From: Mytilus californianus
Taxonomy: Eukaryota
Length of the DNA stretch: 64,000 nucleotides
Assembly: GCF_021869535.1 (NCBI RefSeq)
Contig: NW_026262700.1
Location: 682,001-746,000, forward strand
Direction of reading: 5' to 3'
Position numbers: made by a program. Shown in pieces: positions 21,001 to 36,000 of this stretch. The first letter of the stretch is position 1. Every line of letters starts with the position of its first letter.

Positions 21001-24000
21001 TATCGTGGAAGCGTAAGAGTTTGAGTGATTCGGAATATAAAACACTTTCGGGTTTCAGGGGACTTTCTACATGTTAAGATGATTTATCCATTTCTTGTTA
21101 GATTCCGAATAGTTAATGAACGCATTTAAAATTAGTTCCTTTTCCCTAATTTATATTCCCCTGTATTTGCTTTTCAATTGATTTCACGATGTCATCAGCA
21201 GGAACAAGTGCTTCTGCAGTACAGAAAAGAAAATTGGGGCAATGTTACGTCCTCAATATTCCATCGAGTATCATTGTCTTATAAAATCAATTTAGACAGG
21301 AATAGCATAACTGACACCTGCACACGTCCAAATATTTCTGTTTCAACTCAGTCTTCAATAATGGTTCTGAAAACATTCATGACATCTGGAAACAAAAAGT
21401 GCTATGAACACACATAAACAATTGAAAAGTGCTATTAAAGTCAGTACATTTGCCGGAAAGTAAACATCAGTATGTTGATGGTTTTCTGAAACTGAAGATA
21501 CCATGTACTCCAGAATTAGACTTTAGTTATACTATGGGAGGGAGATGGGGGGACATTTCAGGGGAAAAAATGTGTTTTGACGGTAAATTGAAACAGTTAA
21601 TTTGAATTTGTTAAATAAACAAACAGGTATTAAAATAGCCAATTTTTAATTGCGTCTAAAGTCCTTACGTGCTCATCAGCTTTGCATCTAGTTGTCATAT
21701 ATAAAGGAAAACATTTGGCCGTCACTTTGCATCTAGTTGTTTATAGTATGATTCTTGTAAAAAAAAATTGAATTACTGTGATTACTAAATATAATCACAA
21801 ATTACTGCAATCTCAAATTTTATTTACTGATTGCACCACAAAGGGGTTGGCATCTATGCCTGTGACTTTTTGTCCTATCAAATTTGCGATTTTCTGTCCG
21901 TTTAGCCATTCCAACGAGACAAATTTGGAGACACGTCAATTTATTACACAATCTGTTAAGTCGAGTTGTAGAATATATTTTTTTCAAAATCGGTCACATT
22001 TAACCGTTCAAGAATAACGCAGCACGTGTCAACATAGCACTTCCATGTTTTGTGTCTTTTCATGTAATAGATTAACAAAAAGGTATATCTTCCTTTTGAA
22101 ATTTATCTCCGAAGTTACCTTCATACAGACATACACATATCAAGAACGACTGAAAGTTGCATTATACTTCTTACAATTTCTAAACTTATATTCTTAATTA
22201 CACATGTTTGTGAGATACGACTAGGGAAGTTTTTAATATCTTAAGTAAATCTCACGAGATGTGACGAGAACCCTCTTTCTGGTCGCAGTTACCGGCCTAG
22301 CTGGACGTGTTCTATTCTCTCTCATAGAAGCCAGTGTTTTCCACTTTGTAGTGTTGCAGTGGCAACTCTAAGTTTAGGTTGGTAATTTAATTTTTTATTT
22401 TGGTACAACAGTTAGGAGGTATAGCCGGAAACTGTTTGGGATAATGTTAATTTAACTTGTTTTAACCTTTTAGTGAAGTTTGCCGTTTGAACGGTGTGTT
22501 TTTGTTGCTTTTAATTTATAGTTGGTCTGCCACGTGCGACTATAAATGTTAAATATGGTATCTTTTACTATTTTGTGAACGGACTAGAATATTAAAAGGT
22601 TATTATTTACTGAATTCAGGTTATTTGGTAACTTATTCGAGTTGACCTTTTTTGGCGGTAAAATTAGTGCGTTGCTGCACAATGTGAGATTTGAAATTCA
22701 TGTGGTTTTATCTTTGGAGAAGGTAGACGGACATTTTGAAAGATATATATTTTTAAAAAAAGGCTTGTTTGCTTGTTTTAATTTTTAATTTCTAACAGTG
22801 GGAAATATTAGCAATTTTTTAACGACCGTTGAGGTTGCAGCCCGTATGGTATTTGGGCGTATTGTGATTAGACGTATGTGTGTAGTGTGTTATTTTGTCG
22901 GCAGCATGGTCTGCCTACAATATTTGTCGATGATTGGGAAAATTGTAAGTTATAACACCTCATATATTTTAGTTGAAAGGCTATTTGACTCCACACATAA
23001 GACTTTGTTTTACAGTTCTACTGTAGGTTCGTTAAGTTTTTTAAAAACAGGTGTATTTTCTTTGGAAATTGTATTTTAATGCCGATTTATTTATATTCGG
23101 TAATTTTCTATTTTAGCATTTAATTATGGCTGATCCACCACAGACGTCAGTGCAGGTGTTAAAGCACAAACATTCCATGTTGGGGGAGAGTTTGCTACCA
23201 GTTATTGCCAAATTGAAGGCCTGGGACCCTGATGCTAATTCTGGGGAGCTGTGTAGACTCAAGAAGAGGCACCCATTGGAGGAGTATAGCCTGGTACAGC
23301 TACGCACAGAGTTTGAGAGATTGGCGGGGGAGTCGGTGAAGGATATATTTGCCATTGTGGGAATTGATGAAAATTTGAAATCAGTTAGACAGTTGGTGCA
23401 CCTCACCATCCTTCAGGCCAACTTGGTTGGCATGCCGAAGGGCCAGGCATTGCAAAACGATGTGCAGGTGGGAGCTGATAATCAACAAGCACCCAGAACT
23501 ACAGGTACTTTCATTTGTCAGGTGGTGTTCATGTAAATACCACATTTTTTCTTCCAGTTTGGTCATTTAATCTTTTATTTTATTTTTAAACATTACTTTA
23601 GTTTTTGAACGTGCATGTTTTTTGTAAATTGAGGATGTACCCGTCAAGTTTTTTTTTAAATATTTCAGTTTTCAAGGATCAGTGTTAAATGATATTATTT
23701 ATTTTGCAATTGACAGTTTTGCATATATCATGTATATATTCTAGTATTTTTCTTTGTGCAGGTCTTAATTGAAGAGTAAACTTTTTGACTTGAATATATT
23801 TTATCTCAAATGTACTTTTTATTACAAGAACATGTAATTGTTGTACTGCGATTTTTGGATATCGGATCAAGCTATAATATAGGTATTTTGAATTTGTCTC
23901 CTTTGGTGTTTTGCTTTTTTATGTGTAAAAAAGTCCACATTTGAGGTACTTTAACCTTCGTGTACTTGTATGTTATATTTTTATTTTAGTGACACAGAGT

Positions 24001-33000: not shown

Positions 33001-36000
33001 GTTGTACCATGATAGTGCCTTCAATTCTGCCGAAACAAACTTGGTTTCCAATCATTTGGTTACATGTTGAAAAGTGGGATACTTTAGCAAGGAAAGGGGA
33101 TTCTAAGGCTCTTCTGTACCCAACTGTAAAGGGATATGCTTTTGACAAAAAGGGTTTAATTTGGGATTTACTTGTGTTAAGGCTTAGTTTTTAAGAGCTG
33201 TATTTTTGTTCTTTTAGGCAAACATCCCTAGAATGTGGCTGCCACCTGAACGCTGCAGTGTATGTAATCATGTGAACGACTATGGTTTTAAATTTTGTCA
33301 ATCATGTGGTCGAGACAATCTAGGACAACAGACTGGACTAGATAATGGAGACGACTATATTGTAGAAAAGCGTTTAGATTACTTAAATCTTATGATTTCC
33401 AGTTCAGAATACATGAGAAAAAAGTCTGCTTTAGAAAAACAATTTGAACTGTTTCTAAAATCTTTGGGAAAATGCGTTCTGACAGCCACTCCTAGGGATG
33501 TTACACGAATTTTTGTTCTCAAGGATGGAAAAGGGAAATCCCAGATTCATGATTTGAATTGTAAAAATTTGGGGAAGTTTGGTACTTTCACTTGTAACTG
33601 CCCTTGTAGATTAGCTGCTGGCACAGTTAAGTCATATTTAGGACAATTGAAATCAATCTTTGAATTAAGTGGAAGGGGGATAAATGGTATGATGCCACAT
33701 CAGGTGGAAATCCTGCTTGTAGTTTGGAGGTGAAAAACTATTTGAAAGCCATTCAGTTAGAACAAGCAAAATCTCATGTGCAATAAAAACAGGCAAAGCC
33801 ATTATTTCTAGGGAAGTTGAAATCGGTATGTGAATATTTGGATGCTAGATTACAAAATCCAAGTTTATCTTTAGCTGAGAAGTATGTTGTTTTAAGAGAC
33901 CAGGCATTCTTTAAATTGAAGTATTTTTCAGGTGATCGTGCTAATTACCTTGGACTTATCCTTATTCAGGAAGTTAAAAGGTTTCAGGGTAGTTCTGGTA
34001 TTATATTTTCCCATACTGTTGGGAAAACATTGGGAAATGGTAAGGTTAACGAGTTTTCAGTCTTTAGAATGGAGGATAAGGTTATATGTCCTGTTTTTTG
34101 CTTTGGAGAGGTATATTGAGGGAGCCAAAAATCTTGGGGTGACGATTGAAACTGGTTATCTTTTTCGTACTTTGAATTTAAATAGAACTATGGTGTTAGA
34201 TATGCCTGTTTCATCAAGTACAATGAATGATAGGTTGAAAAAATATCTTACAAAGCTTTGTTTGTATGAGGGTGAAACCCCCCATGGGAATCGTGGGGCA
34301 TGTGCAATAACAATGGCACTATCAGGGATAAACACGCATGACGCCATGGACCATATAGGTTGGTCATCAAATAGCTCTTTCAAGAGATATAGCAGAATTT
34401 CAAAGATGGTTGGTAGAGGATCAGTTGGCTCTTTGATGAGGAATATTGTCCAAAATAATAATCCTGTTGAATCTGTATTTGAGTCTCTTAAGTACAACAA
34501 AAGATTTTTGAGTTAGACACCATGTTTTTTGGTTTAAATGTGTAGTGTTACGATTTTTGTAATCCTTGGGAGATAACTTCAAAAATTTTAACATCAAGAA
34601 TTTGATAAATTTTAACATTTAGAATCTAATAAGATTTTCTATCTATATACTGAGAGAAATTTGTTTTTACAGATGTTTGCTGGTGATTGTTTCCTTAATA
34701 TTTTCAAGGTCCTTTGTTCATGTACTAAATTTCTACTTTCTTTTATGTTTATTTGCAACATTAATATGATTTTTTCAATATGTTTATAATCTTTTTATTT
34801 TTATGTTGGATCATCTTGAAGAACTTTTATAGTACATGATTTTCCCGGTATATTTTACTTTTCCGGAGCATCTCGGTTATTATGGTTATCTTGAATCTCT
34901 GCAGCAAACATCTTTATTATAAAAGTATAATGGAAAAGTTTGATAATAAAATATTTCATTCTAGGGTGTGATACTTTGATGATTTTATTTATCTCCCTTA
35001 GATTATAGTCTGTACATGTTAGTTTATTTTTTGTGTATCACAAAAAATAAACTATGTGTTGGGGACTGAATATCATACTGAAATCTACAATGTATCTTTG
35101 ATATGAATCTTTATTACATGAATGTTAATATTTCATATGCATTTTTATGTAGATGTCTACTGTATTTCATGAATAAATTGGTGTTTTGTTAATGGTTGTT
35201 TCTTTTTAATGATTATAAGTTGTGGGTTGAGTATTGGGTGGATTTGAACTTATAAACGTATAGTCATAGACATTCAAGGGGAGATAGAGAGCAAACATGA
35301 TGTTAAGTGGGAAGTTTTTATCCATCTTCACCCAATACTAACTATACTTAGTCACATTGAGTGTATTTGCTTAGGATAGTTCAGTATCTTAAGTAAATCT
35401 CACGAGATGTGACGAGAACCCTCATTCTGGTCGCAGTTCCCGGCAGGCAAGGCGTTTCAGATATTCTAAATAAGCCTTGTTGTAAGATAATGTTACACGG
35501 GTATTTGTATGGTTACATTGGAATATAGATGATTTGGATCCAGCAAATATGTTTAATGTCGGGAGCCTCTAATTCAGTGATTGTCGCTTGTTGCTGTATT
35601 TTATTTGTATTTTTGTTAATTGTTTTTGTATATGAATCTGGCCGTTAGTTTCCTGTCTGAATTGTTTTACACTGGATGAACAAAAGCCAGACTAGGTTTT
35701 CTTCAACATACACATACAGATACAGGTGTTTTGGTGTGCTTTATAGCTTATTGTGCAGAGTGAGCTAAGGCTCAGTGTTGGAAGTTGTACCGTAACTTAA
35801 AATTGCTCACATCAACGACATTTGATCTTGGATGGAGGGTGGTCTCATTAGCAATCATACCACATTTTCTTATTTCTGATTTGATTTGTCAATTACGTTT
35901 CTTAGAATTGAAATGAATTTATTTTTTAAAAACCACATAGGGAGGAACAGTCATCCAGAATACCAACATTTTGTGCATATTCACAATGCATTCAGGATTT

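Follow-up and report, generated by a model that had tools for sequence, protein, structure and literature searches.

A 64,000-nucleotide stretch of the Mytilus californianus genome (assembly GCF_021869535.1, contig NW_026262700.1, positions 682,001 to 746,000 of the forward strand; hereafter the window, with positions counted from its first letter) carries a copy of a tyrosine-recombinase retrotransposon, dead and riddled with insertions, that has split direct repeats and spans about 22237-36470. The gag gene of this copy is divided by a 485-bp candidate spliceosomal intron, and comparison with relatives suggests that this intron is probably real and old in the clade to which the element belongs. 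Three plus-strand genes lie within 23126-34516: a gag gene with a CCHC zinc knuckle, a pol gene with an RVT_1 domain, and a gene with zinc ribbon, ALOG and Phage_integrase domains (Table 1). An earlier note on this DNA had proposed a tyrosine-recombinase retrotransposon, and the domains found bear this out. The window contains no N and has a G+C content of about 35%.

The earlier note had also described a GT..AG stretch of 485 bp in phase 1, whose removal joins two gag frames. Its coordinates, frame and reading were all reproduced. Read from the ATG at 23126, exon 1 has one base left over ahead of the donor GT (23505-23506, context cag/GTACTT), and the downstream gag frame takes two bases after the acceptor AG (23988-23989, context ..ttatatttttattttag/TG), so that the joined exons read RTT-V-TQSSG. 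The stretch has the GT..AG bounds and the pyrimidine tract of a spliceosomal intron, and its removal restores the frame. Such signals are common in the window: 127 donors match 5 of 7 positions of the metazoan consensus (donor quality was counted as matches to these positions), and 294 AG sites on the plus strand, or 4.6 per kb, are preceded by at least 11 pyrimidines in 15. The GT..AG observation by itself is not beyond chance, and it is the composition and the relatives that give it weight. The G+C content was 0.49 in exon 1, 0.27 in the 485 bp and 0.40 in exon 2, and the stretch contained 25 stops over the three frames. Exon 2 was collinear with gag of the relatives. In a structural model of exon 1 (mean predicted local distance difference test, pLDDT, 86), residues about 10-105 formed a compact, confident domain followed by a low-confidence, disordered tail, suggesting that the gag split falls in a linker after a domain. 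This domain matched no Pfam family, no fold in the PDB at E<=0.001 and none in BFVD, and the ESM Atlas gave no usable match.

Relatives were searched exon by exon, and joined-exon queries were left out. A word-index protein search with exon 1 (126 residues) gave no match. The exhaustive protein search that was therefore needed gave 164 relatives at E<=1e-3, the best 150 of which were listed. The best one, P0121, is an 'unnamed protein product [Mytilus edulis]', an NCBI gene model on a 484,591-bp contig. P0121 was 93% identical to exon 1 over residues 1-126, had V at the split codon, and from residue 128 continued with residues 1-32 of exon 2 at 91% identity. It therefore crosses exactly the junction proposed for the window. 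Whether the P0121 locus holds the 485 bp or lacks them, a difference with its limits exactly at GT and AG would be expected of an intron and not of an ordinary insertion.

Among the 150 listed relatives, 2 had no blastp match, 28 stopped inside exon 1, and 120 reached residue 100. After exon 1, 76 of these 120 ended no more than 40 residues from the exon boundary (median 6), 25 continued without similarity to any piece of the window, and 10 continued into exon 2. Five were joined to pol and two to the recombinase, and in two others a part of exon 2 was followed by pol (one protein) or by the recombinase (one protein). The nine proteins that join exon 1, in some cases with part of exon 2, to pol or recombinase (P0144, P0152, P0157, P0178, P0189, P0190, P0198, P0212 and P0263) had fusion points that differed from one protein to another. 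They are either gene-prediction chimeras on transposon copies or real traces of alternative splicing. We discounted them as evidence of splicing, since the joins are not uniform and every protein of visible origin among them is a gene model.

More distant relatives were obtained by a scan of prokaryotic genome contigs, in which 6 of 31 pattern matches were confirmed as loci: L001-L005 (contigs JBEVXV010000499.1, ..621.1, ..1142.1, ..707.1 and ..232.1) and L006 (CBDCEV010000291.1). These are eukaryote-type elements filed under two bacterial metagenome-assembled genomes, most likely because host DNA was binned by mistake. Split direct repeats were also present in these eukaryote-type retrotransposons. 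When the window gag pieces were compared with the six loci by tblastn, only the zinc knuckle matched. The comparison was then made by blastp, one open reading frame (ORF) at a time, together with a hidden Markov model (HMM) built from 109 exon-1 segments. The zinc knuckle was found as zf-CCHC in L003, and zinc-knuckle matches were also found in L004, L005 and L006.

In L003, which has uninterrupted ORFs and textbook split direct repeats (A1 455-538 equal to A2 9717-9800; B1 9648-9722 similar to B2 9938-10012), an ORF that matched the exon-1 HMM at E=1.3e-5 ended at acg/GTAGGT. The zinc-knuckle ORF started 2177 nt past this donor, directly after ..gtttttgtcag/, a pyrimidine tract with CAG, and donor and acceptor were both in phase 0. 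The ORFs of L005 were also uninterrupted. Its donor, aag/GTAAGT, was the only one in its 7,007 nt that matched all 7 positions, and it sat four codons before the stop of the ORF; the acceptor, ..cggcacag/, lay 1900 nt downstream, and both were again in phase 0. L003 and L005 were 46% identical to each other in exon 1 and 42% in exon 2. The drop in G+C content was seen here as well (exon/intron/exon, 0.47/0.34/0.47 in L003 and 0.52/0.39/0.51 in L005), with the spacers 12-13 points below the exons. No DNA similarity was detected among the gag spacers of the window, L003 and L005 at E<=0.01. The position of the candidate intron is thus shared by relatives, with the gag linker split in L003 and L005 and the identical junction in P0121. 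By that identical junction and by the phase-matched signals of L003 and L005, the 485-bp stretch behaves like a spliceosomal intron conserved in the family. Tandem arrays occurred in non-coding parts of the relatives, with an 80-bp unit in the gag spacer of L003 (1707-2144) and a 51-bp unit in about 29 copies upstream in L006.

We propose that the family of this element, together with a wider clade known from marine-invertebrate sequence, has a gag intron of the spliceosomal type. It would lie in the disordered linker between the compact N-terminal domain encoded by exon 1 and the coiled-coil and zinc-knuckle body encoded by exon 2. In working copies, the intron would be removed from the mRNA that makes Gag, and the unspliced transcript would serve as the template for new copies. 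If the intron is real, the template would have to be the unspliced transcript, because the intron persists across diverged lineages.

The earlier note had gone further and suggested that Gag, Pol and the recombinase are all expressed by alternative splicing, through acceptors before each gene. The three pyrimidine-rich AG sites it pointed to were all present, with 11 of 15 pyrimidines and T at -3 for 23116, 13 of 15 and A at -3 for 30985 (the AG that follows at 30987 has a G in this place), and 13 of 15 and T at -3 for 33217. The site before gag, however, was unremarkable, since the 889-nt 5' region 22237-23125 contains 14 AG sites with at least 10 pyrimidines in 15. An intron of the 5' untranslated region (UTR) ending at 23116 was rejected as unsupported for this reason, and the 168-nt leader of L003 contains no donor-like GT. 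In the window, the exon-1 donor is in phase 1. The AG at 30985 would fit this phase but has the A at -3 given above. The recombinase acceptor is in phase 0, with an ATG (33233) five codons further on, so that donor and recombinase acceptor are out of phase in this copy. What stands of the earlier proposal is a likely gag intron and a plausible role of splicing for pol and recombinase; the site at 23116 and the phase of the window donor against the recombinase acceptor do not fit it.

Across the relatives and the window, 7 of 7 loci had a pyrimidine-rich AG (8-13 of 15 pyrimidines) between the point at which the pol frame opens and its first conserved motif. It was the strongest site and in phase 0 in five of them, and L004 and the window were ambiguous. 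Acceptor-like sites also preceded the recombinase gene in 5 of 5 loci, three clearly in phase 0 and two tied with other sites. Four of 7 loci (L001, L002, L003 and the window) had no in-frame ATG ahead of the first conserved motif of pol, and 2 of 5 (L001 and L006) had none ahead of the recombinase homology. In L003, gag ends with a stop at 3714 and the pol frame does not open until 4022. The exon-1 donor of L003 shares phase 0 with the acceptors before exon 2, before pol and before the recombinase gene. A search with the N-terminal stretch of pol gave 211 relatives at E<=1e-10 among 2269 candidates, the closest being gene models of Mytilus galloprovincialis (63% identity) and M. edulis (62%). 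In 105 of the best 120 of these 211, which were listed, the aligned N-terminus was within 30 residues of that of the window, indicating that the pol ORF really starts there. Ten of the 120 also contained exon 1. All ten were NCBI gene models (Mytilus, Tegillarca and Argopecten), and their gag-pol junctions were unlike one another.

These sequence features make splice-dependent expression of pol and recombinase plausible in the clade. In the full scheme, a first exon with the start codon and the compact domain would be joined through phase-matched acceptors to one of three partners, the body of gag, pol or the recombinase gene, and the unspliced RNA with the retained intron would be the template for copying. 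The scheme is favoured by the uniform phase 0 of L003, by the missing pol start codons and by the proteins that join exon 1 to pol or recombinase. That the clade expresses all its proteins by such retrovirus-like alternative splicing is nevertheless only a tentative proposal, to which we would give about one chance in three. Alternatively, pol and recombinase may need no splicing and be translated through reinitiation, internal entry, frameshifting or initiation at a non-AUG codon, with the pyrimidine/AG sites being T-rich ends of intergenic spacers; we consider this to have a little less than an even chance. AG sites preceded by at least 11 pyrimidines in 15 are frequent (2.4-5.4 per kb). In five cases (pol of L001, L002 and L006; recombinase of the window and L006), the AG belongs to the in-frame TAG with which the ORF opens, so that its phase is fixed by the way it was detected. 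The gag and pol frames of L004 overlap by 15 nt, which would allow frameshifting, the recombinase genes of the window and L003 have an ATG of their own, and the ORFs of Xenopus Ngaro-like elements overlap and need no introns (PMC9210276). Translation without splicing does not account as readily for the distance between the gag stop and the pol frame in L003, for the missing start codons, or for the strongest site being in phase 0 in 5 of 7 pol and 3 of 5 recombinase regions (2 ties), together with the L003 donor and all three of its acceptors.

For gag itself, the main rival to the intron is that exon 1 and exon 2 are separate genes, that the non-coding spacer between them is never spliced and that the GT..AG pairs are coincidental. 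Several observations weigh in this direction and against the gag intron. The window donor matches only 5 of the 7 consensus positions, and the zone in which a junction would be permissible holds 8 GT and 4 AG, of which 10 of the 32 pairs keep the frame open, so that frame restoration alone is weak. The splice phase varies by lineage, being 1 in the window and 0 in L003 and L005. Exon 1 of L005 was missed by the exon-1 HMM at E<=1, and its kinship rests on blastp and on L003. Exon 2 has an in-frame ATG near its start in the window, where it could in principle be translated alone, and so do the exon-2 ORFs of L003, L004 and L005. In L004 (399-5126), the order is recombinase, exon-2-like gag ORF and pol, with no exon 1 in view, unlike the order in L003 and the window; the exon-2-like ORF begins 17 nt after the recombinase stop and is preceded by ..gaatttccag/. 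L004 may have another arrangement of its genes or may have been rearranged. Where a source is visible, the proteins with exon 1 joined to exon 2, P0121 among them, are gene models, and gene predictors must choose GT..AG pairs that keep the frame. The 76 of 120 listed relatives that consist of exon 1 alone would also fit separate genes. Four observations speak against that explanation, which we regard as unlikely. In the three lineages examined, the best donor at or near the end of exon 1 and the best acceptor of exon 2 are matched in phase. In L005, the only perfect donor of the locus lies four codons before the stop. The tails past the end of exon 1 vary in length and have no similarity to any window piece. 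Finally, exon 1 is continued by exon 2 in ten proteins, and in one of these the join is exactly that of the window. That the 485 bp are a later insertion or a decayed coding piece peculiar to this copy is highly improbable: the copy does carry many further lesions and nested insertions, and an imperfect direct repeat of 13 nt occurs within the stretch, close to each end (23535-23547 and 23930-23942), but a nested transposon was ruled out by the lack of terminal inverted or direct repeats at its ends and of any further copy in the window, no target duplication was found at its boundaries, these are exactly GT and AG, deletion of the stretch gives the protein of the sister copy, and the same gag position is split in distant relatives.

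Introns are normally lost in retrotransposons because these elements copy themselves via RNA. In retroviruses and some retrotransposons with long terminal repeats (LTRs), the unspliced full-length RNA is the template and spliced subgenomic mRNAs serve for some of the proteins. If the gag intron is real, the elements described here would likewise separate a spliced mRNA from an unspliced template RNA, which would explain how separated ORFs, some without start codons, are expressed. They would differ from retroviruses in that Gag, which retroviruses make from the unspliced RNA, would itself need a splice, and they integrate by a tyrosine recombinase, unlike retroviruses and LTR retrotransposons. 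Intron retention would be shared with Penelope-like elements, which keep introns through retrotransposition, a property called 'highly unusual among retroelements' in PMC8557442. Penelope-like elements differ in belonging to another reverse transcriptase clade and in having a GIY-YIG endonuclease and pseudo-LTRs, and their best-studied intron lies in the 5' UTR, whereas that of the window element is inside gag. The literature searched, which did not cover the founding papers, yielded no paper that reports introns or splicing for Ngaro, PAT or DIRS elements; an earlier mention may exist. The annotation of such elements in bivalve genomes would change if the intron is accepted: ORF callers now list an orphan protein where gag exon 1 lies, and gene predictors yield mixed gag-pol-recombinase chimeras.

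The extent of the element follows from its terminal repeats. The earlier note had placed it at 23111..33235, and these bounds were too small, since the A1/A2 (60 nt) and B1/B2 (74 nt) split direct repeats mark its ends at about 22237 and 36470. The order is A1-[ORFs]-B1A2..B2, with the B1-A2 junction downstream of the recombinase gene. The distance from A2 to B2 is 952 nt in the window, where insertions lie between them, versus 137 nt in L003. No second copy of the element was found within the 64-kb window. The 12 bases to the left of A1 (22225-22236) recur at 35309-35320, at the start of B1, which may be chance or a trace of integration. An 84-nt inverted fragment of an abundant repeat of about 420 bp lies just before B2, at 36257-36340.

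The element combines reverse transcriptase and RNase H with a tyrosine recombinase rather than a DDE integrase, as is characteristic of the DIRS order, and no rve integrase was found inside it. Reverse transcriptases were the only matches of the pol profile in the PDB. After RNase H, no Pfam methyltransferase domain was detected in the window or in the relatives. A model of the C-terminal stretch of pol (pLDDT 87.7) had its best PDB match in cap-specific adenosine methyltransferases, with E=3.8e-5 and a query TM-score of 0.48, followed by KsgA/Erm-type methyltransferases and also dihydrofolate reductases at E of about 1e-2; the superposition was poor (root-mean-square deviation about 10 Å). 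In the model, the domain after RNase H thus resembles N6-adenosine methyltransferases at the level of the fold. It was conserved in 22 of 22 aligned relatives, with 25 invariant columns. Some relatives also had a weak GDSL/SGNH match at the C-terminus of pol (E about 1e-4, below the Pfam cut-off).

None of the listed protein matches bore the name Ngaro, PAT or DIRS. The repeat layout is that of Ngaro elements (PMC8547959, PMC13465315, PMC9210276 and PMC4157794), in which the internal repeat is also downstream of the recombinase gene (PMC8547959 and PMC4157794). An SGNH-type hydrolase is shared as well, as a weak match, between Ngaro and some relatives of the window element; in amphibian Ngaro-like elements it is a separate ORF after the recombinase gene (PMC9210276). 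However, Ngaro elements are defined as lacking a methyltransferase domain in PMC4157794 and PMC9210276, whereas the window element has the methyltransferase-like fold, and for this reason an assignment to Ngaro was not made. The overlapping ORFs of the Xenopus Ngaro-like elements (PMC9210276) also differ from the separate ORFs and split gag found here. By the feature key of PMC4157794, the combination of features points to Pat1-like elements (PAT group, DIRS order), especially the 'echinoderm form' of sea urchin. Shared are the zinc-finger Gag, the tyrosine recombinase, the split direct repeats A1/B1/A2/B2, and reverse transcriptase and RNase H followed by a methyltransferase-like domain, which in the window element is seen at fold level only and may or may not be the DIRS/PAT domain. 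Unlike Pat1-like elements, the window element has a gag interrupted by an intron-like spacer and separated ORFs preceded by acceptor-like sites, and some of its relatives have the weak GDSL/SGNH domain. The element is therefore filed here no more narrowly than as a member of the DIRS order with split direct repeats.

The window copy is dead, as judged from frame changes and stops measured against the relatives. There are 2 frame changes in gag (the intron not counted), 2 frame changes and 1 stop in pol, and 2 frame changes and at least 1 stop in the recombinase gene. This copy is no longer capable of expressing Gag by splicing or of serving as a template. The lesions and insertions had not been mentioned in the earlier note. 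The gag-pol spacer is swollen to 6.3 kb by foreign sequence; it was searched for domains with 40 of its 51 stop-to-stop pieces, 11 pieces inside a tandem array being left out. The frame-opening gag-pol gap in the relatives is at most 308 nt. Because of this, and because remnants of foreign transposons lie inside it, the gap is insertion debris, and the possibility that it is an intron as a whole was ruled out by these remnants.

Table 1. Features of the retrotransposon copy and of other sequence in the window
Feature	Position	Strand	Remarks
A1, left terminal repeat	22237..22296	+	58/60 bases match A2 at 35385-35444
5' non-coding region	22297..23125	+	includes AG site 23116; without coding similarity
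gag exon 1	23126..23504	+	126 codons + 1 base; ATG at 23126
Candidate spliceosomal intron in gag	23505..23989	+	GT..AG, 485 bp, phase 1; G+C 0.27
gag exon 2	23990..24708	+	coiled-coil-like block, conserved middle block, CCHC zinc knuckle (zf-CCHC E=4.8e-6)
gag-pol spacer	24709..30984		6.3 kb, swollen by foreign sequence
Pieces like short interspersed elements (SINE) or miniature inverted-repeat transposable elements (MITE)	25311-25355 and 27436-27716		in gag-pol spacer; recur elsewhere in window
Tandem array, 147-bp unit	26109-26913		about 4-5 copies, 81% matches; inside gag-pol spacer
PIF/Harbinger DDE_Tnp_4 transposase remnant	28201-28464	-	E=6.5e-11; nested in gag-pol spacer
Weak THAP match	29725-29886	-	noted with the Harbinger-type remnant
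pol	30985..33194	+	N-terminal region, reverse transcriptase (RVT_1), RNase H, C-terminal methyltransferase-like domain
pol-recombinase spacer	33195..33217	+	pyrimidine tract + TAG; TAG is the stop opening the recombinase frame
Tyrosine recombinase gene	33218..34516	+	zinc ribbon, ALOG, catalytic domain; ATG 33233; ALOG_dom E=7e-12, Phage_integrase E=4e-6
3' non-coding region	34517..35311	+	G+C 0.27; without ORF similarity
Internal complete repeat	35312..35444	+	B1 (35312-35385) abutting A2 (35385-35444)
A2-B2 spacer	35445..36396		SINE/MITE-like piece 35556-35875; inverted 420-bp-repeat fragment 36257-36340
B2, right terminal repeat	36397..36470	+	74/74 bases match B1
Ty3/gypsy-like LTR retrotransposon	6692-12815	-	1115-residue uninterrupted reverse transcriptase-RNase H-integrase ORF, protease ORF, gag-like ORF
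Long interspersed element (LINE)-type endonuclease (Exo_endo_phos_2) and RNase H fragments	14590-15240 and 4042-4821	-	
Copies of the ~420-bp repeat	1546-1969, 16717-17102, 18852-19274, 39336-39755, 44779-45193		
Copies of the ~420-bp repeat, continued	51397-51824, 54530-54949, 56889-57308, 59146-59566, 60324-60757		

The window is largely transposon sequence, including an LTR retrotransposon and LINE-type fragments on the minus strand. An Rfam search over the whole window, including the repeat of about 420 bp, gave 0 matches. This repeat, at 36484-36919, had 10 further near-full copies (87-97% identical) and 8 partial copies in the 64 kb, on both strands.

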